Source: Psammoneis japonica (taxonomy: Eukaryota). Taken from it: a stretch of 20,000 nt of DNA. The notes under the pieces were generated by a model that saw nothing but the letters and a program-made list of their open reading frames with translations, did no database searches and was not told the origin of the DNA. The translations under genes were made by a program, and so were the position numbers. How positions within the stretch are numbered: position 1 is the stretch's first letter; the number at the start of each line of letters is the position of its first letter. The stretch covers positions 173,335 to 193,334 of the forward strand of contig QPGO01000140.1 of the NCBI GenBank assembly GCA_008632985.1. Reading direction: 5' to 3'. Shown here in pieces: positions 1-20,000 of this stretch.

Positions 1-1
1 A

Positions 2-1392: not shown

Positions 1393-1488
1393 ACTTCCCA
1401 GAAGCCTTTCCTACTGCCTACCCGATGGTATCAAAGCTTGTTTCGGAATTCAATCCGGATACATTTGTTGGGCTTGTGCGTTGAATTC

Positions 1489-1506
1489 AGAGAGAGAGAG
1501 AGAGAG
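1489..1506. repeat. (AG)9 microsatellite
   Basis: Seen directly in the sequence. Confidence 0.9.
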
Positions 1507-1699
1507 CCCTCGTTCTCTCTGGCTTCCTTATTAGCGTCCTGTGAGAACTCTGTCTCGTTCTTTCTCTCTCAACGCTGCACGCCTATTTAAAAAAAAGAAA
1601 CTAGCATGTAAGAAAAGTCTAAGAATTCTTCCGGATGGCTTATGCTCCTCAATTTAGCTCTCTAGCTAAGTAGCTCTCTGCTCTTAGCTAGCTAGGGGT

Positions 1700-1723
<24 letters not shown>
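1700..1723. repeat. (AG)12 microsatellite preceded by a TAGC/CT-rich low-complexity tract
   Basis: Seen directly. 1655-1695 is built from tagc/ctct units. Confidence 0.9.
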
Positions 1724-1730
<7 letters not shown>

Positions 1731-2112
1731 GCAATTGATGTGTAGCGAGTTAGTTTTAAAACTCGAAAACCCGGATGAGGAGACATACCGGTACGAGGTA
1801 CGAGCTCTTCATACACCACGCCAGAAAGGGAAAAAAAGCCAGCGGCTGTATTGTTGTTCTGGTGATGTTCTGACGATGAGACGAGCCAGTAAGAGTGTCG
1901 TCGCTAACTACACTAATGTGCTGATGGGTATATATGGAGTTTGGAGCGAGTGTGACAGCTGGAAATGATGAAGATGTTGCAGGACTCACAACGAGAACCT
2001 CGGGTGTCACGAGTGTCAAGACTCAATTCTATGCGAACCAAAGCCGCGACGACGTCGCTAAGCAGGTTTGGGCTTCGCATAATTTTTCACAATATCAATT
2101 CAATCATCAATC

Positions 2113-5100
2113 ATGCCTCCTAATAAATTGGACGAAGACGAAACAAGCGCACCTGTAAGTCTTCCTGGAAAGCCCTTAAGCAGCTCCAAGGTGCGATCTA
2201 CCAGTATGAGTATGCAGCAACTTATGGTTAAGGTAGAGTTCCACGATGACAACGATGGCTCAGTTATCGCTGTGGAAGTTCCAACTGGAACAAAAGTGAC
2301 AGAAGCAGCCACGAAGGCTGGAGTGAACATTCCCACCCTCTGTCATCACCCTCGTTTGTCTCCGGTAGGAAAGTGTGGCCTCTGCGTCGTGTCTGTTGAG
2401 AACGGGCCGACTCCGACGCAATTGGCATGTTCGACTGTATGCCGAGCAAACGAGGATGGGAGCCCAATGAAAGTGCACGTTCACGGGACGTTTCTAAATG
2501 GGCTTGCTAACGCGGCCTTGCAGAGGAACTTACAAGCCTCCCTCTCTCATCAAACCAAGAAGTTTCAAGACAATCATGACTTTGCGCCTTGCGGCTCTTT
2601 GGAGATTGAAGATCTTGCCAACTTTGTCACCAACCAAAATATTGATACGTCGTCGAGATGTATCATCTATGACCCATCCCTTTGTGTTGGCTGTTCACGA
2701 TGCGTTCGGGCTTGTGATCAGCTTCAAGGTATGAAGATTCTCGAGGCACCTTACCCAAGAGCAACCCTCCTCTCGTCGGTATCGCCCAAGCCCCTCCGTG
2801 TATGACGACACGTGCCGGTCGCCCCCTGTCAGAGACAGAGTGCATTTCTTGTGGACAGTGCACCGTATTCTGTCCGACGGGTGCAATTAAAGAAGTGGAC
2901 CATAACCCACGAGTGATGCGAGCCCTGCTGGACCCCGAAATGGTTGTTGTCCTGCAGACAGCTCCCAGCATTCGCGTCACTATTTCCGAGATGTTTGGTG
3001 GCAAGCCCGGAGATTGTTCTGAAGGCAGACTTGTTGGGGCCGCTAAAGCAGCAGGCTTTCGCTTCGTATTCGATACTAACCTAACTGCCGATCTTACCAT
3101 TATGGAAGAAGCGAACGAGCTTTTGCAGCGCATCGATATTGCCGAGAATGGCACCGATGAAGAAAAGAAGTCTAAGCCTCTTCCCATGTTCACCTCGTGT
3201 TGTCCAGGTTGGATAAACCTGGTGGAGCAGTCTTATCCAGAGCTTATTCCTCACCTTTCCACCTGCCGTTCGCCCATGGGAATGTTATCGAGCATCGTTC
3301 GTCACCACTGGTGGCCTAGACAGACCAACATTCTCAACCAGCACGGCACGGCATCCGTGGAAGCCGAACACGAAGCAGTCGACCAGTCTAAGCTCTTTGT
3401 GGTTGCCGCCATGCCCTGCACTGCAAAGAAAGACGAGATGGCACGACCGCAATTCAAGATGTCCAACGGCAAACCGGAGACGGACGCTGTCTTGACGGTT
3501 CGAGAGTTGGCACGCTTGTTTGAGTTACGCCAGGTTGCCCAACTCAACAACTACAAGTCCTTTGCAAGCATCCCTGAGCTTGTGTACGATAACCCTTTTG
3601 GAGAGTCGACCGGGGCGGCTATTATCTTTGGAGTCACAGGAGGCGTAGCCGAAGCTGCTTTGCGCACCGCCGCGGACGTCTTGAGTGGCAAGAACCTGGA
3701 GAATGTCAAGTACGAATCTGTCAGAGGCATGTATGGTATCAAAGAGTCGACGATTCAGCTTGGTCCTAATGGTGAGGTTGCGTTGAACGTAGCGGTCGCC
3801 CACCAAATGCGAAATGTTCGCGACTTTCTGGCCCAACTTGAAGAAGGTAACAAGAACTACCATTTCATAGAAGTTATGACGTGCCCTGGAGGCTGTATCG
3901 GCGGCGGAGGGTTGCCTCAGAGCAGAGATGAAGATATTCTGCCCAAACGCATTGATAGCATCTATTCTTGGACGAGAGAATGGTGGTACGAAAGTCACAC
4001 GAGAATCAAGCCGTCAAACGACTATACGACGACTTATTGAAGAAGCCTCTCTCCCCACTTTCCCACAAGTTGTTGCACACCCACTACTTCCCTCGACCAA
4101 GGAAGCCACCTATTGCGCTCAAGGCTCCAGCTCTTGTTGCGAAAGTTGAAACCGAGGACAGTCGTAATACTGTCTATGTGGTGTATGGAACGCAGAGCGG
4201 CACCGCAGCTCAAGCAGCCAAGGAGATCAAGCTTGAGTTACAAGGATTCATCGGACAAGCCAAGTTATCACCTGAGCCACAAGTTTGCCTCGTAGCTGGC
4301 AATGCTATGCATCCTGACAAGCTCATGAAGAGCGTTTCTGATTCTCTCGGAACAATATTTGTCACCTGTACGTTTGGCGAAGGTGAGTTCCCGGAGACCA
4401 TGGAGCAACTCTGGGACTATTTGGAAGACTGCAAGGACGACAAGTACGAGGAGTTTCGCTTTGGCGTGTTTGGACTCGGCTCGTCAATGTATGCTGTTGG
4501 CGACCAGTTTAATCGAGCCGCGAAACGGCTTGACAAGAGACTGGAAGAAGTGGGAGGAAGTAGAATGATCGAGGTGGGATTGGGCGATGACCAGCATTCT
4601 GAGTTATATAGGAGTGAGCTAGAGAAGTGGCTCGAGAAACTGTTGCCGAAGCTCTTTGGAAAAGAAGGTGGTGGGGCATCATTGCTTGATCCACCTGAAC
4701 CGTTGTTCAAGCTTGCTCTTGCACCAGGAACGCATGATAGTCAGTTTCGTCCTTTGCCTCCAAGTTATCACTATGTTAAATTGGAATCCGCGGAAAGTCA
4801 AGTGGCTGTTGGGTATGATCGTCCAGCGTCTATCTTCACGTTCGATCTTGACGAAACAGGAGTCCAGTATGAAGTTGGTGATCACCTTGCTGTCCTTCCC
4901 AGAAATCCTTCGCGGGTTGTGGAGAGAATTCTTTCCCTTTATTCAGGCAGCATCAACGGATCAAGTCTGCTGACCGTCGAACCCGTCGATTGTCACAGTG
5001 ATTGTCCTTTCCCTCCGGTGTTGACTGCTAGAGAGCTACTGACTCAGTATCTCGACCTTTGTGGGAGGCCATCCCGTTCATTCTTTAAGCAGCTGTTCCT

Positions 5101-6058
5101 CTTTGCCACTTCGCTCGAAGCTCGCAATATTCTCAGAGCTCTTTTTGAGCGCACTGAGACAAAGTCGCAAGAGGAGCCAGCTCCGTACACCGCACGGCTA
5201 CGATCACAAACCTGCGATCGTGAGAAAGTTAATCAGGAGGAGTTTGAGCGCTACACTGCGACTCATACGTATGCGGACGTCTTGTGTGATTTTGGTTACA
5301 AGGCGTTGCCTCCCTTCGAGTACCTGCTCTCGATGGTGCCAACGATTTGTCCCCGATTGTACTCGATTGCCTCTTCTCCACTTTATCGAAAGAATAAACT
5401 GGATCTGTTGGTTGTCTTGAATGAGTGGACGGATCCAAACATGAAGACGAGAGTTGGTTTGGCCACGCAGTTTTTGTTTGGTGCGGACATCGGAGATAAG
5501 GTCGCTATTCAGGTACGCACAGGCATTCTTCAGCCTCCGGCTGACACAACTACCCCCATCGTTTGCTTTGGTTTGGGATCGGGAATTGCACCGTTCCGCG
5601 GCTTCTTGCAGCATCGGCAACGACAGCACGAGCAAGGCGCGAAGCTTGGACCTGCGACTCTATACGTTGGGTATCGTCACGAGTCAATGGATTATTACTT
5701 GAAAGACGATTTCGAAGAATGGATGAAATTAGGAGTGTTGACCTGTGTGCATCCCGCCTTCTCTCATGATGATCGAGAGAAGCGAGGCGGAAAGCTCTAC
5801 TTCATTTCAGATCTTATTGGCGATAAACCAAAGGACATGGCCAAGGCATTGCTTCTGGAGGAGGAAAAAGAAGAGGAAGACAACCAAGTTCATGTGTATT
5901 ATTGTGGACCTGCACTTGGTATCCCTGAGACCATCCAGCATGCGATGGAGGATGCAGTCAAGCACGAGGAAGGCGGTGGAATGGACGAAGAAGAGGCAGA
6001 AGCCTTGATGGAGCGCATGGTCCACTTGGAGGATAGATTCCATGCAGAATGCTTTTAG
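2113..6058 (+). CDS. hydA: [FeFe]-hydrogenase (group A type) fused to a C-terminal flavodoxin + FAD/NAD(P)H-binding diflavin reductase (CysJ/CPR-like); ~1,315 aa after correcting two 1-nt frameshifts (~2750, ~3969)
   Basis: N-terminal 2Fe-2S domain (IPTLCHHP..GKCGLCVV..LACST). Two 4Fe-4S motifs (CVGCSRCVRAC; CISCGQCTVFCP). H-cluster L1 FTSCCPGW (3189), L2 MPCTAKKDE (3411) and L3 EVMTCPGGCIGGGG (3870). Small-subunit segment RKSHEN..LY..LLHTHY. Flavodoxin motifs YGTQSGTA, TFGEGEFP and FGLGSSMY. FAD motif RLYSIASS. NAD(P) motifs GLGSGIAPFRGF and YYCGP. ORFs 2113-2805, 2802-4040 and 3968-6058 join by adding one base at each junction. Confidence 0.92.
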
Positions 6059-6289
6059 TTTCGCCTGTCCGCTTTGCAGGATGGCTCGGATCGGAGTTGC
6101 GACGCCATTGCATGCTACACTTCTGCATATTTTTTATTATAATAAGTTAGCAAATAGTTTTATCAGGATACTTCGCTTGGTCGGCTTGTTCTACTAGCTA
6201 CTACAGTACAAGGCGAATGCATTTACCGGTATTGTTGATCGGAGCAACATAATCACAAGCACCATGAGCGCTGCACACCTTTGCTTGCG

Positions 6290-7759
6290 TCATTGCGTGG
6301 TGCGTCCGCCGAGACTGTTCATCGACGACTGACAGAGATAGCGATACTCGTCAAGTGTCATTCCAACATCCTTGGCACAGGCGGGCAGCGTGACGAGCTG
6401 GCCGTCTTGTTCTTGAACCATTGTGACAAGCACGGTCGCCATGGTCCTCCAGAGCTTGGTACCTAGATTAGGATTGGCTTCAGCGTATGAAAAGCACCTC
6501 AATAAACTCGAAAGCTGCTGCTCAATCATTCTTCTGGCTTCTTGTGGAGTGTCTAGATCCTTGTAGGCTCTGGGCAGCTGCCTCTTGAGAATCGAGTGTA
6601 AACCCGCACAGCGAGAAGCACCAATGTCAGAAGAATCCACAACCGGCGGCAGCTCTGGATGAGATTCGCCATTCTGTTGCATACGTATCCACTCGATTGC
6701 TTGAGGGGTGATCCAGTTGGAGAGAGTAGTCCATATTCTCATAAAGGCCCGTGGTTCGGGTGGTGGGAGCGCGTCACCTTCACTAGAGTCAAAGTCACAA
6801 TCACCGGCTCCTTCCTGTCTCATGATCTCCGCCAACATGTACAACGTTTCCTCGTCATTGTTGCTCGATACTTCCTCCTCCTCATCATCATCTATTCCCA
6901 TTGTAACAAGATTTTCTTCCTCTTCCTCGTCTGTTTGCTCTTGTACTTGGTGCCGTCCGTAGAAATCGTCGTACAATCCAATTGACTCTTGCCGTTGCTC
7001 CTCCATAGCTTCTTGATACTCCGCCGGGGCCATCACCGAGAAGCTCAGGTCAGTTTCAATTCCAGACTCCTGATTAGACAAGTAATTTGCTGTTTTAGTA
7101 CCAGGTTTTGCGCCACTAGCATGAGCTAGCAACTCCGACATTGAAGACAAAATCAGTGGGTCATCGCTGGAGGAATTCTCTTGCTCGCTACTACTTTGCT
7201 TCTTTGAAGTGTCCTTGTTTTCATCAGCCATACTGCTCGGCTTGTATCCTTCAATAGAGTCGTGGCTGTCTTTTACGTTGGGGGCACACCGGCTTGTAGG
7301 TAAACTGCTGACGGGTCGTTCCACCACAAAATCCTTAACAGCGGCAGGTGGCAACAGTTGCGAGTTTTCTTGTTGCAGTGCAGAGCTGCTCTGCTCATGA
7401 CTGACAGACGATAATTCTGCTACTTTTGAGTACTTTGGTTTGCGAAGAATACCCTTTACGGGTGGTTTCGTATCAGCTACAGTCTCGGAAGTCAAAGGAT
7501 CTCCATTGGAAGCAGCAGCTTGGTGTGTTTCATCAGTCGTTGCACTTGAGAGGCACCACGAATTCACTTTTTGTCGCGTTTCTTCCACCATGGTGTTACT
7601 CTCAAATACCTTGTTGTCTCTATCCTTGCTTACGCTTGGAGAGCCTCCGCTCTTCCGAATTGTTGGACGCACATGTTGCTGCTTCATCATGGCCGTGTTT
7701 TGTGTGGGAGGGATAGGCGAGAGCGTTTTGGAGTTTGCAGCGGGACTCAAAACACGCAT
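6290..7759 (-). CDS. RPAP2 (Rtr1) C-terminal-domain-like protein with a long low-complexity/acidic N-terminal region
   Basis: Long ORF with normal dinucleotide use; first ATG at 7759. The C-terminal ~150 aa (FMRIWTTLSNWIT...LKRQLPRAYKDL...IEQQLSSLLRCFSY...KLWRTMATVL) resembles, from memory, the C-terminal helical region of plant/animal RPAP2. No Rtr1 zinc-finger cysteines are visible. Confidence 0.55.
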   Translation of the reverse strand: MRVLSPAANSKTLSPIPPTQNTAMMKQQHVRPTIRKSGGSPSVSKDRDNKVFESNTMVEETRQKVNSWCLSSATTDETHQAAASNGDPLTSETVADTKPPVKGILRKPKYSKVAELSSVSHEQSSSALQQENSQLLPPAAVKDFVVERPVSSLPTSRCAPNVKDSHDSIEGYKPSSMADENKDTSKKQSSSEQENSSSDDPLILSSMSELLAHASGAKPGTKTANYLSNQESGIETDLSFSVMAPAEYQEAMEEQRQESIGLYDDFYGRHQVQEQTDEEEEENLVTMGIDDDEEEEVSSNNDEETLYMLAEIMRQEGAGDCDFDSSEGDALPPPEPRAFMRIWTTLSNWITPQAIEWIRMQQNGESHPELPPVVDSSDIGASRCAGLHSILKRQLPRAYKDLDTPQEARRMIEQQLSSLLRCFSYAEANPNLGTKLWRTMATVLVTMVQEQDGQLVTLPACAKDVGMTLDEYRYLCQSSMNSLGGRTTQ

Positions 7760-8865
7760 ACCGGCCAGACGCAATCGCACCCAACGGAAATTTTACACGG
7801 ACAAACGCACTAATGATAAAATTTTGAAATTTTGAATGGCCATTTCCAACTGCTCCTTGGATGCGAATTCCGCTTGTTTTCATGCCGGTGGCATGTTTAC
7901 CATCATGCATCATTGTGAGACTTTGGTGACGCTGCACAGCAGCAAAAGCAAAGAGCATCATTGTTTTGGTGAAGAGTGAAGAGACAGCAACCAGAGTGCA
8001 AGGATTCAGTTTGACCGGCGCCACGGCGATGAAAAGCAGGAGATCGTCCATTCTGCAAAAGCTGCACATGCAACAAAGGAGCAATCGGAGTGCACGAGAA
8101 ACCAAGCCTGTCAACAACAATGAGAGTCATCCAAGTCACAGTGCTGCCAAGAAGAAACAGCAAGAACAAAAGCCATTGAGTGTCGTTTTGCAGAATGAGA
8201 ATGAAGTCGAAACCACTCCTCCTGAAGGTTCCAAGAACAAACAATTGCAACCGAGAGGCAGCCACAGCAAAGCTTCTCCTTCAACAAAAGAGAAACAACC
8301 TGCTTCTTCACTGATGGCACTTTTGCCATCTGCAGATTCTTGTTCAAGCAACAAGCGTGCAAAAAAGAAGCCTCCGGTTGCAGCTTTCAATCATGACGAT
8401 TAAATTGCATCATGACACCACGTCAAAAATGGAAGCAGAGAAGTTGGGAGCCACTCACCCCCTTGTAACTTCTCTCCATGCACAAGTTGAGGGGAGTGCA
8501 GTTGAGCAGTCCAAACACTTTGTTGTGTGAAATGTCTGAGTTTCCATCATCCGGGAGAGGGTTCAAGTTGGCGAGCCGACTTTGGTGATTTGTGCGGAAA
8601 ACATGCTGAGCTCTGTGCACATGGAATCTGGCCCACTTTTGCACCCATGCCACCTTGGATGTCTCAAGAATGGCACAGGGCAGGCAGATTGTCCAAAACT
8701 TTGAGTGGGAACAGGGATGTGTGTGCCACAAACTTGGTCGCTTGTTTCGCGTCGAAGACAAATGCATCCACCAACCAGAGCACAAACTGCAGAGCTTGCA
8801 TGCAGAATTCTGTGGGGCAAATGTCACACAGAGTCCCACCTGGCTAGCAGGACTGGAACCTTTTG

Positions 8866-9430
8866 CCATGTCTTGAGCCTGAAGATGGTCGAATGTGTCC
8901 AATGGTTGCCAACAAGCCTCCGGAAATGTTGGACAAGGAGTGGGCATGGCTCAATGAGCTCAGCTTTGGTGCCATTGTTTTTGCAAATCCATGAGACAGC
9001 ATCAAGCCCCTGCCAGAAATCATTGTGGATGGAGATTTAGATGGAGACCTGTTTTTTGCATGTTGGAACAAAGAGATCTCAACTCCATTTGGCTCTCCCA
9101 CCTGAAGACATCCCATTGCCAGCAGAGGACAAGGATGCATCAACTGCACCAACCACCAATGACAATTGGTTGAGAGGAACACAAAAGATCATGTTGAGCA
9201 CTTGTGCTGCAGGTGAGATTCACTCATTGATTGGAAAGCTGTGTGCACTTTCTGCCAAGACATCCGATTCATCTGCTCAATGCAACAAGGATCTGGATGC
9301 AATTGCATTTGCAAAAGCATTCAAACAAGCACTTGAGTTTGGAGAGCACAGAGGAAAGATTGAGCTTCCTGTCCATCTTCATGACAAACTTCCTGCAAAC
9401 CTCCAGAAGCATCCAGCTCCTCTCAAATAC
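8866..9430 (+). pseudogene. Relic of a cellular RNA-dependent RNA polymerase (RDR/QDE-1-type, DLDGD catalytic motif), C-terminal portion
   Basis: The frame from 8866 reads PCLEPEDGRMCPMVANKPPEMLDKEWAWLNELSFGAIVFANP*DSIKPLPEIIVDGDLDGDLFFACWNKEI (DLDGD at 9034-9048; TGA at 8992, probably from CGA). After a frameshift it reads DNWL...LIGKLCALS...DAIAFAKAFKQALEFGEHRGKIELP, matching the RDR pattern GxL...ALDxxKHG. Confidence 0.75.
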
Positions 9431-9751
9431 CATGTGCCACCTGCCACTGTCTGCAGTGCAGGACTTGAGTGACACTGCAAGAACCAACATCCAGCCCACT
9501 CTCATTGCAGAAGTTGCTGGAGTGAGGGCAAAAGAGCATCTTCTTTTTGTTGTGCAATTTCAACTCATTCTTTGACATGTGTTGGATGTTGCAAGTGCCA
9601 GTGCACAGAGTTGCACCATTGACCAATGTGCTTTGTTAGAGCAGAAGAAAGAGTGCAGGGTTGTCTTGCAGCATTCTTCTGTGCCATCTGATGGGGGGAG
9701 AAGCAGCCACACTGGCGTTCCGTCTGCTCCAGATGCTGGCAGGAAGTGGCG

Positions 9752-9771
9752 CTCTCTCTCTCTCTCTCTCT
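9752..9771. repeat. (CT)10 microsatellite
   Basis: Seen directly. Confidence 0.9.
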
Positions 9772-12208
9772 GGAGACAGCTGGAATGGAGACTGCTTGCC
9801 CCCACCCCTGCGCACTGCACTGTTTTTTTTTAGAGGGAGCTTTCCATGGGCCAATCATTGATTGAGGCCCTTGATCAATGCAAAGCCAACGATTTGGTGA
9901 GAATCCGAGCTCAAGCAAGGTGTCCATTTCCACCAAAACCATCAATCAACGGGAGTGTAATGGCCGGTCAATCAAGAAAACTGATGGACAGACTGCTCCA
10001 TCTTGCCAGAGCAGAGATCAAGCCATCCACTTGTGAGGTCTGCAGGTCATGTGGAAAGAAGAAAGGAAGAAACGGCCCTCTGTGTGGATGATGGTGCAAA
10101 GGTTTCCACTCTGGGACAACTGCCAGAACAGCTCCTGATTGAAGCAAACCATTCTTGCATGCAGCAAAGGGCAAGAAGCCTCATGTGGGCATTGCATTTG
10201 TTGCTCCAAGGCTTTGAAAAGTCCTCTTGTTGCTTTTTTGAGAAGATGCCTGGAGGATGCAGTTGTTTGCCACAGAGTTGGTTGAACCAGCACAACCACC
10301 AGAGCCTTGTCATGTGCCTCTGAGGGTCTTCATCCACCCACGCTTTTCATGTGTGGTGACTCCATGGACTCCTGCTGCCTGGCTGCTGCTGGCTGGCCGA
10401 ACTGACAACCATGGTCTGGAACCCACCCAGGAGGGGGAGGCATCAGAAATGAGCTGAGACCCAGTGCGGGCACCAGCACACCAAAAAGCTTGTGACTCTT
10501 GCAATCAGTTGACAAGAGAAGTGCTGCTGTCATTGCCAAACAGCTGTCTGGGGTTAAAAGCTCTTGCACCAGAGTCAACCTTGCAGGTGCAGAGAGAGAT
10601 TGAGTTGCATGACTTGTTGTTGACCCAGATGTGCTCTCTTTTTGGGTCCAAAACTCATTGAGCTCCTTGAAGCCAACAACAGCACCTGATCATGGTGAGA
10701 ATCTGCACCCCTTGTGCAATTGAAAAAAACCCCTTTCTGTGGAGAGGGGGGTTGGCCCAAGCAGGCTCAGGATGAGAGTTGTCAGAAGGCAAAAGGGAGC
10801 TTCATCGAGCATTCTGAAATGACAGTGTTGTGGCGGGTTGCCCAAATGCACAGATTGTGTTTGCAAAAGGAGTGATGAGAAAAACAAAAAGAGCGAGTGT
10901 GCATGAGAAGCAGAGGTGAGCCTCTTGATGTTGAAGCTTGGCATGGGAAAGGTTTTCATGGCAAGTGACCACATCACATTTTGTTGTTCAAAGCTCAAAA
11001 TCCACCTCGCTGCCCTCGTCATCCTGTGCAGAAACATCTGCACAGTTGAAAAAAATGAAAACAAGTGCAGAGTGGCACACTGCCACCTGTGGGGAACAGT
11101 GCAGCATTTTCAAGCAAGGGTGCATCATGTCAGTGTGACCACTTCCCAAGCAAAGTTTCACACTCCATTTTCTGCAAGCCCAACAAAACATGCTCCCCAC
11201 CTGCCCATCATGTGCCACACTTGCATTTTTTTGTCATGCCACTTTGAGGTTCACCGCTGCACACCATCACCAAATTTGGAAAAATGCAAAAGCAAAGGGC
11301 TTGAAGAATTCCATCCAATGACGGCATCATGTGCAAGGTCTCAGACTTTTTTTCATCTTTGCCTCAAATGAACAAGTGTCACATTTTCAACTGTGCAACA
11401 ACTGTGGGCTTGTGCAGGGTGCCCACTGCTGACAGGACCCAAGCGATGTTTTGTTTGTTGAGAGAAAGGTGGCACAATTGTCAAGAAAGTCTGCTCTTGT
11501 TGCTCAAATCTTGCAATGTGCAGGTGTGAGTTGCAGGCTCAAGGTGGCAACTTTCCATGCAAATGGCAGCTTTTTGTTGTTTCTTGTGCATCAGATCTTT
11601 TCTTTTTGTTGAAATGAAAAGAGCCCCCCTGTTTGTGTTCCTGTGCCTGTGATTGTGCCAGAGGATGTTGCGCCAGCATGATTGCACAGTGGCAGTGTGA
11701 TGTGGGAAAGCTTGTTCTTGTCACAAGTTTTTTTCTGATTTCACAGTTTTTTGATTTGTTGGCAAGGCAATCTGGCTCTGCAGTGGCCCAAGCGCTGTGC
11801 ACATGAATTGTGCCAAGACATCAAGAACCCCCAAGCTGGGAGAGCCTAGACTTCCAAAGAGACACACCTTGCTCTGCACAACCTTTTGCGTCCTTGCTCC
11901 TGCCCCTTCTCTCCCTGTGCCTCTGGCAACCACCACCCGCCAATCTGTCCATCTGCCCACTCTTGCTGGTGTGGCATGCACACAGCCCACTTGTTTTGGA
12001 CAAGCAACATGTGTTGTGGCTCTCACAACTTCATTTGATCTCTTTGGCTGCACCCTGATGCATTTCCTCCCTGGTTTCTGTGCTGTGTTGCTGGCTTGCC
12101 CTTTGTTGCAGGCACAACGAGACCTTTCCTGGATTTTTGTGTGGTGTGTGTCCAACGTTCCAGCCAGCCTCATCCTTTTTACAAAGTCCAGCTTGTGAAC
12201 TTGCGCTG

Positions 12209-12210
<2 letters not shown>

Positions 12211-12252
<42 letters not shown>
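12211..12252. repeat. (CA)21 microsatellite
   Basis: Seen directly. Confidence 0.95.
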
Positions 12253-12255
<3 letters not shown>

Positions 12256-13481
12256 GACACAAGTGCTGCACATGCACAGCTCCTGGCAAGGTCAGGACAG
12301 GATTGCCATTTTTCAAATGGACACAACTGCATTCATGTGGCTTCATTTCTCTGACCTCTGACAGCACTTGGCATCGCTGAAAAGCTCACCTCAATGTCTT
12401 GCCATCTGGTCAGTGAGTGGGGACAATGTTGCCCCCACATTCTGCACAGCTCTCATCAGCAGTGTGCAACTGTGGACAACATTGCTCAGTGCAGTCAAAA
12501 AAGTTGTTCTTCCCCTTGCAACAAACAGCTTCTTTGCTGCTGCTCATGACGGACGATGCTCTTTTCTGTCGGGGGCATCTGGCACAGAGGAGGTGTGCTG
12601 CGTCCAGAAGTCACGTGAACCACCCCCCTGCAGGAAGCTGAAAGATGGCTCTGTTCAATTTTAAAAAGGTGCAGTGAGCTTGGCTTTTTGGCCAGCAAAA
12701 ATTGTCAGACTTTAGAAAAATGAACGTGGCATCGCTTGTTGCACCTTGTTGGCACAAAAAGCAACAAAGAGATTGCTGTGACATGCTGGTGTGTGTGTGC
12801 ATGTGGGTGAGGGGTGGGGTTGGGGCATTTGAGGGAATGTGACCCTGGTGTTTTGTGCACAGTTGGTTGAGTGTGTGGTGGTTGTGGCTGTGGCAGCAAC
12901 TTTCCTTGGTGCAAAGATTTGTCAGCTTCAAAAGTCGGGAAATTGCTGGGGGACTTTGAAAAACGCTGGTGCCAAGCAAAACAGCTCTCTCCCCTGAGTT
13001 GCCATTGCATCAAGTGTGTTGTGTTGTCCTCACACTGTGTTGACTTGCTCTGGGGCTCCCAACAGGCCAGCGATTGTCTCAGCAGCAGGGTGCTCGCTGG
13101 CTGGTGCTGCGCGCTCATGCTGCTGGCAGTCTGTGTCATTGCAGTCGACTGGTGCCCTGCCTCCTCCTGGCCAAAGCTGTGGGCACTCCTGCAGACATGC
13201 CAGAGCTGAGAAAAGCTGCTTTGCAAACAAATGTGCTCCTGCTGCAGAAGCTGCTGATCTCCAAAGCAACAAGAAGTGTGTGTGTCACCACGAGGATGAA
13301 GCGCTGTCGCAGCTCTCAAAAACATGTCAGCAAGATAAGAGCCATACCGTAGTAGAATGAAGCAGCCACACTGACATTCCAGAGAGTTGTCTTCGTGGAA
13401 GTCAGTACAAAATCTACGCGACCTCCCCGTCGCCAATCAACTGTGTCAAGAGCATCAAGAGGGAGCATAGTGAGTTTGACC

Positions 13482-14748
13482 ATGGCGCCTCGATCGCAAG
13501 ACGACTCCGCTGCTCTCTTGCGTGAGTTGTATCAGCACAATGATTATTTCGATTCAGTCGTTGACATGATCCCTGCGAAGCTCTACGTTGCAGGGAACTC
13601 GGGTAAGACACAAGCACAGAAAGCTAGCTGCAGAACACAACATACCGCTAGGATCTAGAATCACTCGGGATTGCTAACTCATTATTTGAACTCACTTGTT
13701 CTTTTCTCAAGGCGATGGTGACGCTCTGAATAGCAAATACTTCAAGGGACAGCACAAGGAGTCAAAAGAGCTGAAGCGAGCTCGTACAAAGGCTGCGAAA
13801 CGAGCAAAGTACGACCCGGATCAAAGCGAATCAACGACTGAAACAAAAGTGAAGAAGGAACAGCAGCAGCACGAAGAAGCGAGTAAGGAACTAAGCCAGT
13901 TGGTAAGCTCTGAAGCTGTTGAGGATATGCGAGTTGATGGGAGCGAAGAGGCAGCGAAAGAGACGAAAACGCAAGGCAGCGCTGATAACAAGTCGCGAAT
14001 CGAGGCTCTGAGAGCTAAACTGCACGCCAAGATTGCGGAGAAACGAGCTCAGCGTCCCATGAGCGACGCTTCTACCATCAGCAAGCGTGCTGCGCGACGT
14101 GCCGAGAAACAGAGACGCCAAAAAGAGGCTCAAGGGAAAAAGAAGAACCGAGTGAATAACCAATCTTCTCCCTCTGTAGCACACGCAATTACAGCTTCCA
14201 ACGCTGCGACTCCTGATATCATCCCATCTCCCATGGATGATTTGAAGCATTTGGATTTTGGAACCTTGGCTGGACTGAACAACATTTCCACCAAAAAGAA
14301 CAACAAGAGTCTTCTCAATCTCAACAAGACCAAGAACTTGGAGAAGATGCTTCACGACGCCGAACAAAAGAAGCAAAAGCTACAGGAGCTGAAAGAGTCG
14401 GCTGCTCAAGAGGACAACGAGCAGGCAAAGGGTATCATGTGGAAGGATGCTCTCAAGGAAGCCAGTGGAGAGCGCGTCAAGGATGATCCAGCACATATCA
14501 AGAAGCTGTTGAAACGCAAGGTTGCGAAAAAGAAGAAGTCGCAAGTCGCCTGGAAGTCGCGTTTGACCCAAGTTCAGCAACAGGCCCAAGACCGGCAGTC
14601 GAAGCGTCAAGCCAATTTGCAACAGCGACGACAAACCGGAGTCAATAAGAAACAAGTGGATCAACCAAAAAGGAATCGCGCCGGATTTGAGGGGAGGAAA
14701 CAAGGCTTTCTGAACAAAGGCCGTGGCGGCGGTGATAAGGAACAATAG
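13482..14748 (+). CDS. RRP14: Ribosome biogenesis protein RRP14/SURF6 (exons 13482-13602 and 13712-14748)
   Basis: Exon 1 HNDYFDSVVDMIPAKLY and exon 2 KAAKRAKYDP fit the RRP14 N-terminal domain. The C-terminal WKDALKEASGERVKDDP..KKLLKRK..KKKSQVAWKSR...RAGFEGRK fits the SURF6 domain. Splicing restores the frame. Confidence 0.9.
13603..13711 (+). other. Spliceosomal intron (109 nt, phase 1) in RRP14/SURF6
   Basis: GTAAGA donor at 13603, branch-like GCTAAC at 13673, pyrimidine tract and AG at 13710-13711. The join gives TCG G|GC GAT in frame. Confidence 0.85.
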
Positions 14749-15124
14749 ATGCTGCGCTTCATTCGTGCATTACATTTCTTTAGATGTGTTTACGCTTTAG
14801 ACTTTTCCTCTTTCCAAGGTTGGTTTAATGAAACTGATTTCCCGCCAATCATATTACTTTCTGCTTCTTTTTTGTTTTGGTGGGCTTGGTAGGCTTAGCT
14901 CCCTTTTCCTCCGGTTCTAGAGATTGACGCGACAGATATAAAGGATGTAAGAGAAACTGAGGCGACGTGTAAGCACATTCAACAACGTTGGAAGTTGGAA
15001 AACACCTGCTTACCAACTGTCGTGGCCGCCTCTGACCTTGGCCGTTTGATTGAGCGATGATCCATCTTGTGGCTTCAAACAAAATGCTCGTCTAATGTGT
15101 TCCTTTCAACTCACACTTTACAGT

Positions 15125-15554
15125 TGTTATAGGGTAGAGTACCGTAGCTCCAGCCAGAAACAGCTCCAACAAGCATGCAAGCAGCAGCAATAAGAGCAGC
15201 AACGACCTCCGCTCCGCAACGACCACGACAATAACAGCAACTCGTATGGCACTCAACTTCGAGTCGGTCAGTCACGAGTCAACAACCGAGTCTGATTCAC
15301 GGATGACGCTCCCGGTCATGGATCTCTTCTTCCGGAAGAAATGTCCGTTGAGTCTTCTAGCGATAGTAATCGGAGTGACACACACGACCGTTAGGTCATA
15401 ATGTCATCTCCAATCCCTCGTGAGATCTTCTCACAATTCGTATCTTTAGCGTATCTTATTGTCCCAAACCCACTTCTTATCATCCTCTGTTGTATTGTAC
15501 AACCTCAAGAGAGTCCTGAACTCTCCATCCTACACAGTGTATTGTTGTATCCCA
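15125..15554 (+). repeat. Putative 5' LTR (TG...CA, ~430 bp)
   Basis: Begins TGTTATAG at 15125 and ends TATCCCA at 15554, 3 nt before the PBS. The second LTR is outside the window, so the left boundary and candidate TSD (ACAGT, 15120-15124) are unconfirmed. Confidence 0.55.
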
Positions 15555-15557
15555 AGT

Positions 15558-15571
15558 GGTTATGAGCCCAA
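15558..15571 (+). promoter_or_regulatory. Primer-binding site complementary to the anticodon arm of initiator tRNA-Met (half-tRNA priming)
   Basis: GGTTATGAGCCCAA is the reverse complement of TTGGGCTCATAACC, the tRNA-iMet anticodon stem-loop. This is the PBS type of Drosophila copia and yeast Ty5. Confidence 0.8.
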
Positions 15572-15632
15572 TCCACGCACCGGTGTCAACTCGTGACGGA
15601 GTTGCTGCCACTCGTTCGTCTCGTCACAGACG

Positions 15633-15742
15633 ATGTCCCATCCAACGGCGATCTTCTATGTCGCAATCCAACGGCGATCATCCATGTCGCAATCCCTGCC
15701 TGCCAATCGATCCTCTATGTCGAATCATCCACAACCATGTCC
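15633..15742 (+). repeat. Imperfect ~20-33 bp tandem repeats in the retrotransposon 5' leader
   Basis: Units start ATGTC at 15633, 15658, 15684, 15717 and 15737. The core ATCCAACGGCGATC is repeated in the first two units. Confidence 0.7.
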
Positions 15743-18700
15743 ATGGATCCTGACACCGTCAAGATGTTTGCTGAGGCCTTCGCCAAGATGCAAACCTCGA
15801 CCAACCCTCCTGCGATCCCCACGCCGCTTCGCGGCGGCATCCACCACTCTCATGGAGTGCATCTGGGTGGTTCGGCTCTGAACAACAAGTGCGAGCAGAC
15901 CGACACCCGCACCCACCATTTTGCCTCGCAACGTCGCCATCCGAAAGCTGTCGACTCTGTCGAGCGATCTCTCAGAGATCAACTCGCTTCGGCAACCACA
16001 TCCAAGTTCAACGGCCAGATTGAGTCATCCAACGGTTCCAGTGCTGAACTGGACAAGGGCCACTTCGTCAAGACCATTCAGGACTTAATCGAGTCGCACG
16101 GACAAGAAACTTTCTACCATCTCAAGAAAGTCGACGGCAAGGTCGTGTGCCTTTTTGATCATCTTCACGCCTTCACTGTCAAAGACCTTGAGAAGGAATG
16201 TGAGACCCGTGTGGCGGCTGCAGGTGACGAAGGCTACGATCAGTGTGAAATCGATGACATCGGCTTGTCACAACTCATCGTCAAGTCGCGCATCACCGAA
16301 ACCTTCCGTGAAAAGATTGAAACCAAGTTTAATCACTTGAAGAGCTACAAGGATCTTCCGGGGTCTGTCTCATTTATGATGGCTCTGGATGCCTGCAACG
16401 CCAGTGCTCTGGTTGACGTCAAGGCCGCCAAGGAAAAGTTGAACAACTTAACTCTGGACAACTGCCCTGGCGAAGACTGCACCGAGCTTGCAACCGAAGC
16501 TCTGCGCCTGCTCAAGATCATGCAGACGGACTGTGCGTCACCAGTTGAAACTGGGTCCACTGTTTTATCTAAGGTGTCAAAGACATCCTCCGAGTTTTTC
16601 AATCATCAAGTTTTCGCCAAGCTCGACTCCATCAAGCGCTTGGAGCGCAAATGTCGCTTGCGTGACCCGGCAGAAGTCCCCAAGGATGCCGACTGTGCGG
16701 ATCTTGGACCTGTTGGCCTTGTTGGCTGGATCACCAAGACCCATGGCGAACTCATTAGCGATGAAGATTGGCCTGCCTTAGCAGCCAAGCTCCCGGAATC
16801 CAACCTCGCCAAGGACAACTCGGAAAAGCATTGCCACGGCTGTGGCAAGGTTGGGTGCACCAAACGCACGTGTCCCACCTGCAAGGAGCAATGCAAGAAG
16901 GACAAAAAGGGCACGGCGGACAAGTCCAAGGATGACCCTCCGGATGTCCGGAAGACCAACCCTTCCAAGAAACCACCCAAGCCGGCCTGGCGTTTCGTTC
17001 ACAAAGGTGCCACTGTCACCGACGAGAAAGGCACGACCTGGCACTGGTGCGACAAGTGTGTGAACAAGGAAACGGGCAAGAAGGGCATGCATCAAGGCCA
17101 CTCCTCCGCTCAACACACCGGGAAACCGTCTGTCAACACCGAAACCACCGCTGCGGCAAATTTATCTGCTGTGTCGGACCCCTCTTCGGGCATTCCTTTT
17201 GGTCCTCCCGAGCAGACGACGTCTCCGCCTACAGCCGACCCCTCTGACCCTAACGAGCTGGTTTATTGCGGCATGTGGTGTGCACCTGTGGACGACTCTT
17301 TGAGTTCGACTCCAGTGACTACGACCGTCTCGTTCACTCCTGCTCCATCGGCCGAGAGGGAGACTGCCGTGGCCAAACCCGCTCCCATCTTGGTTGAAAC
17401 AGTTGACCCCGAAGATGCTGACGATTGCTCCGAGCACTCCGACGCTCACTCCTCTTTTGACTCCCTACCGTCAGCTATCGAGCTATTTCCGGCCTGTGCT
17501 ATGCACGAGATTCAAAATCCGGACGTGTTTTATGACACGATCGCAACTCACGTGGAAGGTCTGTCCGACGATGTGTTAGACGATCTCGTTTCCGGGGCAA
17601 GCATCCTACCTTTCGAAGACAGCTACGAGCACTTACCTCCAAGCACCCAGTGTCGCGGTTTCGAATTTTACGATCCCGAACCCCAAGATGTTGATTGTAG
17701 CGTCGAGGAGGCAACGCCGAGCTCTCGTCTTGAGCTTTTCTGGAACTTCTTGAAGCTCCGAGTTTTCTGGCTGTTTGCTGTGTTCTGGGAAACGGTGCTA
17801 CACATTTGCTGTGCGCCGATTCCTGTCTTACCTCGTCGTACACGCCGTAAGGCATTCATCCCAACCATTCACGGTTTCCCCTCTACCTGGATGGTGCTGA
17901 CTGGAGCTATCATGGTCTGGGCGTCTGTTTTCAACGGTCAGCTTCCCACGTGTCCATTCTCCAATGTCCCTTCTCGCTTCTCCAAAGCTAGCTCTCAGGT
18001 CTGCTCGATCATTGAAGAACTGGACGATAAGATAGTGTTAGATCCGGGCAGTTTGGTGGAGTGCAACAAGATCAAGGCGCGACAAGTGCTTACCGAATTT
18101 GTGGAGCGCGATCCGGACCATCATCTGAGCAAGAAATTCACGCAGCTCTGGGAGAACGACGTATGCTCTTCCCCAGGCCGCTGCATCCCTCCAGCTCTAG
18201 AAGACCTCGAGTCCCACTTCGACACCTGTGATTCAGAGGAAGCCCTCGGCCCGCTCCCGACCGAGCCGAGCCACTGCTTTGATGTGGTTGAGGAGCTCTC
18301 TCCGGACTATTTTCGTTTCGACGAGCTGTCCACCAAGTTTGGTTTCGTGGACACCACTCCATGGCAAGACCCTGTGAAGCTTCTCCAGGCAGCTACTGAC
18401 GGAACCGAAGCCCATCCCACTCATACCTCTATGCAGGTGTTGACGGGCCAACGTTCTTTGGCACAACTCGCCGCCGACCCGCAAGCTTTGCTGAGCCTAG
18501 CACATGAGCGCCACACCGTCACATGCGATGCTGGCGCATCCTTGGCCATTGCTTACGATGAAAACGACTTTGTCGGACCTCCAACGATCCCTGATGGCCC
18601 ATTGAAGCTTGGGGGTCTAGCAAATGGCTTAACCATCGCCGGCATCGGACCCGTCTCCTGGGTTTTCCATGACGAGGACGGCTCTGAGCTCGTCGTCAAG

Positions 18701-20000
18701 ACGATGGCGCACCATGCACCTCAGGCCGGACAATGTCTTCTATCCCCACAACGCCTCTACAGCAAGGAACATGGCGTGACAGGAAAATGTGAGGGAGACG
18801 AGGACTCATTTCGAGTGCATGTTGATGGCGTCGGTTCGCTCAAGGTCGCGTGCGCGTCAAATCACTTGCCGGTTGCGTCTGTGACCAACGGGGTGGCACC
18901 CGCTCCTCAAGTCAATCTGTCTGTGTTGCACGAGGACAACCAGAACCTCACCACCGGTCAGAAGCTCCTTCAAGAATGGCACTTCAGGTTTGGTCACCTG
19001 AACATGCCACGCATCCAAGGCCTGCTTCGGGCCGAACCTTTTCTCCGACCCAAATTCAAGCATGCTTCGCGTTGCGACATTCCGCGGTGCGAGGTGTGCG
19101 AACATGCCAAAGGACATCGCCGAACCCTCAAGTCTGCCAAACATGCGGCTACTCCAGAGCGTGAGGGTGCTCTTCGAGCCGAGCATCTACGTCCAGGCCA
19201 AGCCGTCAGCGTGGATCACTTCGAATCCCGTCTCCTCGGCCGAACCTGCGACTCCTGCGGGAAGGCCTCGTCCCAGCAATACAAAGGAGGCTGCATTTTT
19301 GTGGATCATGCCTCCGGTTACCTGCACATTGAACACCAACTTGGTTTCTCTGCTGTGGAAACGGTGCGAGCGAAGCAAGCGTTTGAGAAGCACGCGATGG
19401 ACCACGGAGTCATCATCCAAGAATTTCTTGCCGATTCTGGCGCTTTCAAGGCCAATGCTTTTGTGCAACACATGCGACAGCACGAACAACGTCTACGTTT
19501 TTGCAGAACCAACGCCCACCATCAGAACGGCGTCGCAGAACGCGGCATTCGCTCCATCTCCAACATGGCGAGAGCGATGCTCCTCCACGCATCCATCCGT
19601 TGGAAGGGGGGCATGGACAGCTCTTTATGGCCTGTGGCCGTGTCTCATGCCGCGCACATTTGTGACGTGACTCCCAACGCTCAAGGCTGCTGCCCCGCGG
19701 ACATTTTTACCGGGACTGCTGCACCCCGACATCGTCTTCGCGACATCCACGTCTGGGGCTGTCCGGTCCATGTCCTTGATCCGAAACTTCAGGAAGGCAA
19801 GAAATTACCCCGCTGGCAACCCCGCACTCGTCGTGGTCTCTTCCTCGGCTTGAGCAGCATCCACTCCAGCGAGGTGCCCCTTGTGCTTAATCTTCAGACA
19901 GGAAGCGTCACTCCCCAGTGCCATGTCATGTTTGACGATCTCTTTGCTGCCGTCTCTTCGATCGCGAGGGAGAGTGAGCCGCCAAGCCACTGGGAAGAGT
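15737..20000 (+). CDS. Copia gag-pol polyprotein (gag, zinc knuckle, protease, integrase), open to the window edge but heavily missense-mutated and probably non-functional
   Basis: ATG at 15737 with no in-frame stop to 20000 (~1,421 codons; absent from the ORF track because it has no stop). Knuckle CHGCGKVGCTKRTC (16832). Protease TCDAGAS (18521). Integrase WHFRFGHLN..CEVC, SVDHFES, FLADSG, HQNGVAER, HVWGCPVHVLD and RRGLFLG. Confidence 0.9.
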   Translation, partial: MSMDPDTVKMFAEAFAKMQTSTNPPAIPTPLRGGIHHSHGVHLGGSALNNKCEQTDTRTHHFASQRRHPKAVDSVERSLRDQLASATTSKFNGQIESSNGSSAELDKGHFVKTIQDLIESHGQETFYHLKKVDGKVVCLFDHLHAFTVKDLEKECETRVAAAGDEGYDQCEIDDIGLSQLIVKSRITETFREKIETKFNHLKSYKDLPGSVSFMMALDACNASALVDVKAAKEKLNNLTLDNCPGEDCTELATEALRLLKIMQTDCASPVETGSTVLSKVSKTSSEFFNHQVFAKLDSIKRLERKCRLRDPAEVPKDADCADLGPVGLVGWITKTHGELISDEDWPALAAKLPESNLAKDNSEKHCHGCGKVGCTKRTCPTCKEQCKKDKKGTADKSKDDPPDVRKTNPSKKPPKPAWRFVHKGATVTDEKGTTWHWCDKCVNKETGKKGMHQGHSSAQHTGKPSVNTETTAAANLSAVSDPSSGIPFGPPEQTTSPPTADPSDPNELVYCGMWCAPVDDSLSSTPVTTTVSFTPAPSAERETAVAKPAPILVETVDPEDADDCSEHSDAHSSFDSLPSAIELFPACAMHEIQNPDVFYDTIATHVEGLSDDVLDDLVSGASILPFEDSYEHLPPSTQCRGFEFYDPEPQDVDCSVEEATPSSRLELFWNFLKLRVFWLFAVFWETVLHICCAPIPVLPRRTRRKAFIPTIHGFPSTWMVLTGAIMVWASVFNGQLPTCPFSNVPSRFSKASSQVCSIIEELDDKIVLDPGSLVECNKIKARQVLTEFVERDPDHHLSKKFTQLWENDVCSSPGRCIPPALEDLESHFDTCDSEEALGPLPTEPSHCFDVVEELSPDYFRFDELSTKFGFVDTTPWQDPVKLLQAATDGTEAHPTHTSMQVLTGQRSLAQLAADPQALLSLAHERHTVTCDAGASLAIAYDENDFVGPPTIPDGPLKLGGLANGLTIAGIGPVSWVFHDEDGSELVVKTMAHHAPQAGQCLLSPQRLYSKEHGVTGKCEGDEDSFRVHVDGVGSLKVACASNHLPVASVTNGVAPAPQVNLSVLHEDNQNLTTGQKLLQEWHFRFGHLNMPRIQGLLRAEPFLRPKFKHASRCDIPRCEVCEHAKGHRRTLKSAKHAATPEREGALRAEHLRPGQAVSVDHFESRLLGRTCDSCGKASSQQYKGGCIFVDHASGYLHIEHQLGFSAVETVRAKQAFEKHAMDHGVIIQEFLADSGAFKANAFVQHMRQHEQRLRFCRTNAHHQNGVAERGIRSISNMARAMLLHASIRWKGGMDSSLWPVAVSHAAHICDVTPNAQGCCPADIFTGTAAPRHRLRDIHVWGCPVHVLDPKLQEGKKLPRWQPRTRRGLFLGLSSIHSSEVPLVLNLQTGSVTPQCHVMFDDLFAAVSSIARESEPPSHWEE

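Follow-up and report, generated by a model that had tools for sequence, protein, structure and literature searches.

Repeat-induced point mutation (RIP) of fungi is triggered by duplication and converts C:G to T:A, mostly at CpA, which raises TpA and AT content and creates stop codons. In animals, ADAR and APOBEC3 enzymes act on RNA or on minus-strand complementary DNA (cDNA) and leave a signature on one strand; ADARs are not known outside animals. A process that runs in the opposite direction from RIP has been described in the chlorarachniophyte Bigelowiella natans, a rhizarian alga (Mettrop et al., bioRxiv 2026, 10.64898/2026.01.13.699255). According to the available part of that preprint, to which all our statements about it are limited, 231 of the 302 new single-base mutations found in mutation-accumulation lines lay in an integrated giant virus and virophage, and 230 of these 231 were A>G or T>C, all at the dinucleotide TpA (TpA>TpG/CpA). 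The rate in the viral inserts was about 1,000 times the background, in some of the lines only, and TpA-poor genes of the alga were enriched in reverse transcriptase and DDE domains (10.64898/2026.01.13.699255). Here we analyse 20,000 nucleotides of nuclear DNA from the diatom Psammoneis japonica (assembly GCA_008632985.1, contig QPGO01000140.1, positions 173,335 to 193,334 of the forward strand; hereafter the window, whose own numbering is used throughout), in which a copy of a Ty1/copia retrotransposon with long terminal repeats (LTRs) and a separate block of 5.4 kb are strongly depleted of TpA. We consider it likely that both record targeted TpA>TpG/CpA hypermutation of selfish or foreign sequence at the DNA level, of the kind seen in B. 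natans.

The depletion is sharply confined. Expressed, like all dinucleotide frequencies below, as the observed/expected ratio, TpA is 0.28 in the transposon (15737-20000) and 0.04 in the block (7899-13335), against 0.5-0.77 in the genes at 1-7800 and 0.61 for the genes in the comparison of all dinucleotides, while the flanking genes and the intergenic stretch 1534-2083 are of normal composition. The positions of individual TA steps place the edges at 7898/8401, 12713/13336 and 15561/15657, and the block ends about 100 bases short of each neighbouring gene. A preliminary description of this DNA, made from the letters alone, had flagged the transposon at 15737-20000 as hit; our counts bear this out and show the neighbouring genes to be normal. 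The block, which is the window's strongest instance, lies outside those coordinates and was found by a sliding count.

As in B. natans, only TpA is hit, giving TpG or CpA according to the strand, with both products seen here; the changes are confined to discrete foreign or selfish stretches beside normal genes; and the long-term trace is a depletion of TpA with a gain of CpA and TpG (10.64898/2026.01.13.699255). The two cases differ in the host, here a diatom and thus a stramenopile, in the victim, here an LTR retrotransposon and an insert with a polymerase fragment instead of a viral genome, and in the nature of the evidence, a static sequence signature here and a measured rate there. The TpA ratio of 0.04 in the block compares with 0.45 in the B. 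natans viral region, and the strong loss of CpG from the block, the sparing of the LTR and the preference for a pyrimidine after TA, all set out below, are not among the features reported in the available text of the preprint (10.64898/2026.01.13.699255). With fungal RIP the window shares localised, dinucleotide-specific transitions on both strands that inactivate transposons and spare neighbouring genes. However, TpA falls here, the GC content of the transposon is 0.53-0.59, no stop codons are made and the repeated LTR is spared; RIP, which would raise TpA and AT, was rejected as a candidate on the opposite direction of the change. Full-text literature searches returned no report of TpA hypermutation in diatoms (an apparent "TpA" match in PMC4504042 was the word "Tpase-like"). 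In the literature searched, targeted A:T>G:C hypermutation at TpA was otherwise found only in this one 2026 preprint on one alga, which has overtaken the earlier remark that such a process was not known to have been described (10.64898/2026.01.13.699255).

Homologues show that the flagged frame makes up the internal region of one copy of a Ty1/copia LTR retrotransposon of diatoms. From its first ATG at 15737 it runs for 1,421 codons and is open to the end of the window, which cuts it before the reverse transcriptase; the 3' LTR also lies beyond the window. The best relatives (E = 1e-187, 62-64% identity) are polyproteins of 2,000-2,400 residues, including two of Fragilaria crotonensis, that carry PF07727 (RVT_2), PF13976, PF22936 and PF25597, and because these domains are of copia type, the frame represents the gag-to-integrase part of such an element. 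Matches of copia proteins in tblastn are collinear with the window from gag to integrase, and the frame's own Pfam scores fall just below the curated cut-offs (26.4 compared to 27; 20.4 compared to 28.4). No close copy was found in the protein database, where near-length and shorter proteins alike stayed at or below 64-70% identity.

The 1,421-codon frame contains only 12 Tyr (0.84%), together with 49 Cys and 70 His, a recount that agrees with the codon and residue counts given earlier. At the 3.24% Tyr of its relatives about 46 would be expected, a loss similar to that of TpA overall. At the 25 columns in which at least half of 23 full-length relatives carry Tyr and the window is not gapped, the window has Tyr at 3, Cys at 10, His at 8 and Phe at 4. 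Cys or His thus occupies 18 of the 25, whereas the 23 relatives, scored likewise against one another, show 0-2 His and 0-1 Cys per 45-51 columns, or 27 of 1,115 in total. The preliminary description had arrived at the same kind of change from an unaligned consensus; 10 of its 11 motifs match the consensus of the 23 relatives, and the remaining one, "WYWC", does not, the real consensus being WKFC.

Within the integrase (residues 1040-1469), Tyr makes up 0.7% of the residues compared to a mean of 3.24% and a minimum of 1.85% in 103 relatives, and both Cys and His exceed the maxima of all 103. The TpA ratio of the same stretch is 0.18, compared to a mean of 0.62 (standard deviation 0.11, minimum 0.37) in 61 of 80 related loci on metagenome contigs, the 19 with matches shorter than about 900 bases having been omitted. 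Along the transposon, TpA is 0.16-0.21 in most pieces of 500-900 bases, 0.36-0.54 in 17000-18500 and 0.18 in 15593-16500. Two residues kept in 100% of the 103 relatives are altered, Gly>Arg at 19505 and Asn>Asp at 19664. Since Tyr was lost like TpA overall and invariant residues were altered, the copy was free of selection at the protein level while it changed. The closest relative of the element is locus L001, a metagenome contig with an integrase match at 1911-3212 and 63% identity.

Low TpA could in principle be a trait of the lineage, with long-term pressure against UpA (RNA cleavage at UpA, codon bias) having left active copies equally poor in TpA and equipped with the same Cys and His. 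The fully open frame would agree with this, as would the fact that the transcribed internal part is depleted and the LTR is not; moreover, L001 has the lowest TpA of the 61 loci (0.37) together with normal CpG. However, functional copies would not tolerate the loss of 18 of 25 consensus Tyr or the changes at 19505 and 19664, the parallel loss of Tyr and TpA (12 residues compared to about 46) shows no sign of purifying selection, and depletion goes much further in the block, most of which is non-coding, than in the transposon. The open frame itself is without weight, since TA>TG/CA makes no stop. We regard a lineage-wide trait as quite improbable.

The codon test covered the 230 integrase columns in which 70% or more of the 103 relatives agree, and we infer the direction of change from these homologues. 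The window departs from them at 30 columns: seven departures are single TA>TG changes, five are TA>CA, six are CG>TG/CA, one is another transition, eight are transversions and three involve several steps. TA-type changes therefore account for 12 of 30 departures in the window, compared to 6 of 207 in 11 related elements (Fisher p = 2e-8), these controls being the stop-free ones among 19 hand-picked loci of near-full coverage out of the 80. A single departure of the 30 is a transition outside TpA and CpG. Other dinucleotides are ordinary as well, with AA at 1.19-1.26, TT at 1.11-1.23 and AT at 0.73-0.89 of expectation, and since AA and TT show no depletion, the motif is TpA rather than WA (A preceded by A or T). 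The claim that A:T>G:C changes are confined to TpA thus stood, whereas the error-prone synthesis of Pol-eta type at WA, offered in the same description as an alternative agent, is contradicted by AA and TT ratios of 1.11-1.26. The density of pyrimidine-purine steps is constant at 237 per kb in the block, 236 in the transposon and 238 in genes, indicating that only transitions moved TA and CG into TG and CA.

Changes in the two directions are nearly equal in number. TA>TG and TA>CA occur in a ratio of 7:5, and Tyr>Cys and Tyr>His in a ratio of 10:8, interleaved along the + strand as previously described, and TG and CA steps number 620 and 585 in the block and 307 and 339 in the transposon. The 12 TA-type events showed no strand-coordinated clustering into TG-type and CA-type groups (6 runs compared to about 6.8 expected, counted by hand). 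Because the two directions are nearly equal and interleaved and a block that is not a retroelement is affected too, the mutations would have arisen in double-stranded chromosomal DNA, or in both strands while these were exposed.

Depletion in the transposon begins at a defined point. The stretch ahead of it, measured over 14910-15592 (683 bases), has 32 TA, a TpA ratio of 0.68, a CG ratio of 0.95 and ordinary TG and CA. It contains a 13-mer resembling a primer-binding site; the last ordinary TA is at 15561 and the next follow at 15657, 15716 and 16086, which sets the onset a few bases behind the 13-mer. A 12-mer of this site occurs on the + strand in 9 of the 80 related loci, with different flanks in all of them. 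It lies upstream of the integrase match in L009, L010, L014 and L029, at the equivalent place where measured, and downstream in the other five. In L010 and L014, direct repeats 7.0 kb apart end exactly at the 13-mer, which argues that the 13-mer is the primer-binding site and that the spared stretch is the 5' LTR. The LTRs of relatives have TpA ratios of 0.8-1.2, so that the LTR in the window, at 0.68, has lost little. No LTR-like direct repeats were found inside the window, for either the block or the transposon.

A retroelement whose LTR is spared and whose internal region is hit, with the change falling exactly at the primer-binding site, is what editing during retrotransposition might leave behind. 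An ADAR- or ADAT-like enzyme would then have acted on the genomic RNA, or a single-strand DNA deaminase on the minus-strand cDNA in the manner of APOBEC3G, before integration; the retroviral LTR is single-stranded for the shortest time, and editing of cDNA consequently spares it. But editing of RNA alone gives A>G on the + strand and editing of cDNA alone T>C, whereas both are seen here, at 7:5 and 10:8 and interleaved, so that the earlier argument against editing of the packaged RNA alone holds. The model of single-strand time also predicts the least editing just behind the primer-binding site, where depletion is in fact maximal (0.18 in 15593-16500), and the block, which has a polymerase fragment and no retroelement homology, is saturated with the same signature. 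Finally, the process in B. natans acted on integrated DNA (10.64898/2026.01.13.699255). Editing during retrotransposition is therefore unlikely. The window resembles ADAR and APOBEC3 editing of animals in that deaminase-driven, clustered transitions cripple a retroelement, and differs from it in showing both directions and in extending to the non-retroelement block; with the directions near-equal and strand asymmetry lacking, editing at the RNA level (ADAR) and at the cDNA level (APOBEC) were both rejected as candidates.

The spared LTR has consequences for hypermutation of chromosomal DNA as well. The mutator had been called repeat-directed, which the data do not show, the repeated LTR being spared (0.68) and the more heavily mutated block lying mostly at single-copy depth. 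Four candidate explanations can be put forward for the sparing. The targeted unit of transcription or chromatin may start near the LTR end; an unmutated copy may later have replaced the LTR through recombination or conversion; a mutated, non-autonomous lineage may have spread in trans, with the cis-acting LTR under selection; or editing may have taken place during reverse transcription, which clashes with the two-strand symmetry and with the maximal depletion behind the primer-binding site.

The block at 7899-13335 contains 13 TA, 71 CG, 620 TG and 585 CA, corresponding to ratios of 0.04, 0.22, 1.82 and 1.73, respectively. It is probably an old insert, including part of a gene for a eukaryotic RNA-dependent RNA polymerase, that was brought close to saturation by the TpA process together with CpG decay. 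A phmmer search with the open reading frame at 9041-9469 returned 155 representatives at E <= 0.001 (best 7e-18), and all nine long hits scanned carry the RNA-dependent RNA polymerase domain PF05183 (RdRP) at the C-terminus, several of them with N-terminal KOW or chromo domains. tblastn places the homologues at 8866-9078 and about 9090-9424, with 40-59% identity over about 190 residues. The fragment itself gave no direct Pfam hit, and the peptide DLDGD translated at 9034-9048 is presumably the DxDGD catalytic loop of the polymerase. A codon test on the fragment (2 TA-type and 2 CG-type among 12 departures) was too small to weigh and was not used. Pfam searches with 93 open frames of the block found nothing at E <= 0.1 beyond chance-level hits, copia proteins did not match the block, and two of its open frames had no match at E <= 10 among solved structures. 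Long open frames are many in all six frames, since TA>TG/CA removes TAA and TAG and makes no stops.

Most of the block is at single-copy depth in the public sequencing run X1. Over 8005-9338, by contrast, the X1 depth is 1,200-3,750 compared to about 60 elsewhere. This piece must therefore be present in many genomic copies, and it may be part of a mobile element, so far undescribed, that carries an RNA-dependent RNA polymerase. Microsatellites, (CT)n and (CA)n, lie inside the block at 9742-9780 and 12202-12263, and reads seem to be cut there.

How the changes came about can be outlined as follows. TpA is palindromic, and an A:T>G:C transition at one or other of its two As would give TpG or CpA. 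In the internal region of the transposon, this would have rewritten codons of conserved Tyr, Ile, Val, Asn and Thr residues while the 1,469-codon frame remained open, no stop codon being possible from TA>TG/CA. Run almost to its end and combined with CpG>TpG/CpA decay, this process would have produced the block. The base 3' of the surviving TA steps is A in 45 cases, C in 34, G in 48 and T in 21, compared to 113, 177, 143 and 161 in genes, and this shortage of pyrimidines (chi-square p = 1.4e-4) indicates that TA followed by a pyrimidine (TAY) was hit first. The natural tRNA target of TadA and ADAT2 is an A with U before it and C after it, a context that the TAY preference and the requirement for a 5' T would fit. 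ADAT2/ADAT3, of the TadA family, are thus candidates for the chemistry, in which A is deaminated to inosine and read as G. We infer that the change was made on chromosomal DNA in place and that its agent was a TadA/ADAT2-like adenine deaminase.

Some protists modify thymine preferentially at TpA. The window could accordingly reflect another chemistry, with a modified thymine (by a hydroxylase of TET/JBP type, or by alkylation) read as C, or with an error-prone repair patch, and since TpA is self-complementary, T>C on one strand would look like A>G on the other. The window offers no evidence of base modification, however; the WA motif of Pol-eta type is excluded by the undepleted AA and TT; and the 3'-pyrimidine preference with the 5'-T requirement resembles the U-A-C target of TadA/ADAT2 in tRNA. 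The authors of the preprint likewise favour an ADAT2 homologue, proposed as the agent in B. natans without a test (10.64898/2026.01.13.699255). Taken together, another chemistry appears highly improbable. The available text of the preprint also states that ADAR prefers U before the edited A and cites reports of activity on DNA for amphioxus BjADAT2 and Trypanosoma TbADAT2 (10.64898/2026.01.13.699255).

The TpA process is accompanied by loss of CpG. CpG>TpG/CpA is the usual fate of methylated CpG, and such decay is recognisable in the block, where CpG is 0.22 with a gain of TpG and CpA, and in 6 of the 30 integrase departures, which are CG>TG/CA. CpG decay cannot remove TpA, however, and the younger transposon copy combines a CpG ratio of 0.94 with a TpA ratio of 0.28, whereas in the block both dinucleotides are nearly gone. 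Because CpG in the transposon is near-intact at this TpA ratio, the TpA process is faster than CpG decay or precedes it. Neither the co-occurring CpG>TpG/CpA decay nor the block at 7899-13335 figured in the preliminary description; the co-occurrence of CpG decay, the TAY preference and the sparing of the LTR with an edge at the primer-binding site are details newly added here.

Run X1 provides contigs for each of the 30 bins of the window, with a word depth of about 60-fold for single-copy sequence and of 1,300-4,300 over the transposon. Contigs of a second run, X2, are absent over 8005-13340 and 15342-20000, a gap in cover from which nothing is concluded. In genes, X1 and the window disagree at many places, single-base insertions and deletions included. 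Variant places in X1 number about 740; among the 40 listed, 7 are in the transposon, and at two of these listed places other X1 copies read CA where the window has TG, namely 15634/5 (7 contigs) and 16148/9 (2 contigs). Such doublets are expected if one ancestral TA was hit independently in different copies.

The reads also speak to an artefact of sequencing or assembly, in which modified bases in silenced DNA would have been miscalled, turning TA or CG into TG or CA. Single-base insertions and deletions do separate the window from the reads (for example, the extra C after 3966 in both runs), and both classes of change affect dinucleotides that are often modified. However, no bin of the block or the transposon lacks an X1 contig, the X1 piece 12264-14909 differs from the window at only 2 letters, and miscalls would leave the clean LTR and neighbouring genes unexplained. 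In Illumina data from B. natans, the same changes are real mutations (10.64898/2026.01.13.699255). An artefact is hardly credible.

Several points nevertheless weigh against targeted hypermutation of chromosomal DNA by an adenine deaminase. As TpA is palindromic, deamination of A and a T read as C are indistinguishable from sequence. Change specific to this copy is argued from distant homologues, at most 64-70% identical, and from two doublets; Tyr at the window's Cys and His columns is kept by distant relatives, and active or consensus copies may themselves carry Cys or His there. The doublets could also come from an ancestral CG, although an ancestral TA explains them better because the element's CpG is nearly intact. 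The spared 5' LTR is not what a simple repeat-directed mutator acting on chromosomal DNA would predict. L001 combines low TpA with 7 of 9 conserved Tyr kept and no TA-type departures, so that part of the depletion may be the baseline of the lineage; its low TpA may reflect such a lower baseline or, alternatively, a slight effect of the process seen in the window, visible mainly at synonymous sites. Finally, X1 may be the source sample of the assembly, so that its agreement with the base calls need not be independent evidence.

If targeted hypermutation is nonetheless correct, a diatom case involving an ordinary LTR retrotransposon and a near-saturated insert suggests that the B. natans process is no curiosity of one species, and TpA hypermutation may be a wider eukaryotic way to disable selfish DNA, opposite in direction to fungal RIP. 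More tentatively, and as a conjecture that could well fail, we propose a TpA-directed genome defence shared by at least two lineages of the stramenopile-alveolate-rhizarian (SAR) group, diatoms and chlorarachniophytes. It would not be repeat-induced; it would be aimed at a chromatin or transcription unit reaching from the junction of LTR and internal region to about 100 bases from neighbouring promoters, and a DNA deaminase derived from TadA/ADAT2 with a preference for T-A-pyrimidine would carry it out, leaving frames that are open and dead. Should this hold, gene callers will take such frames for genes. Mutated relics with very long open frames will inflate gene counts and mislead the dating of transposons and estimates of the ratio of nonsynonymous to synonymous substitution (dN/dS). 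Diatoms dominate ecologically, and some of them are open to genetic work, which makes both the enzyme and its choice of target directly testable.

Features of the window, with coordinates, strand and remarks
Feature	Coordinates	Strand	Remarks
CLC channel gene	1-1534		Host gene
[FeFe]-hydrogenase fused to flavodoxin/FAD/NAD reductase, with 2Fe-2S/4Fe-4S ferredoxin-like part	2083-6058	+	Host gene
Left neighbour of the block, 500-codon open frame	6290-7792	-	TpA 0.5-0.68; marks left edge of the block
TpA-free, CpG-poor block	7899-13335	.	5,437 bases between two divergently oriented normal genes
RNA-dependent RNA polymerase fragment	8866-9424	+	About the last 190 residues; in-frame TGA, frame change near 9080-9100
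Right neighbour of the block, RRP14/SURF6 ribosome-biogenesis gene	13356-14748	+	PF15459, PF04935; ordinary TpA and CpG; marks right edge of the block
Putative 5' LTR	14910-15555	+	646 bases; single-copy X1 contig ends at 14909, where depth rises
Primer-binding-site-like 13-mer TGGTTATGAGCCC	15556-15568	+	Directly behind the putative 5' LTR
Gag / zinc knuckle / protease / integrase frame, Ty1/copia (diatom CoDi-like)	15593-19999	+	1,469 open codons

The remaining observations concern the host genes. In the window the hydrogenase-reductase gene falls into three frames that overlap. They would be joined by an additional C after 3966, as in runs X1 and X2, and an additional T after 2750, as in X1, and the window probably contains single-base assembly errors or another allele at this gene. 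Its reductase part is 82% identical to environmental proteins, and the best named relative, at 64%, comes from a Bacillariaceae metagenome bin. The 500-codon frame to the left of the block matched no Pfam family and is covered by contigs of both runs. In the RRP14/SURF6 gene, an X2 contig skips 109 bases with GT..AG ends at 13601/13711. The joint looks like a spliced intron, and X2, which is recorded as "DNA?", may accordingly be RNA instead.

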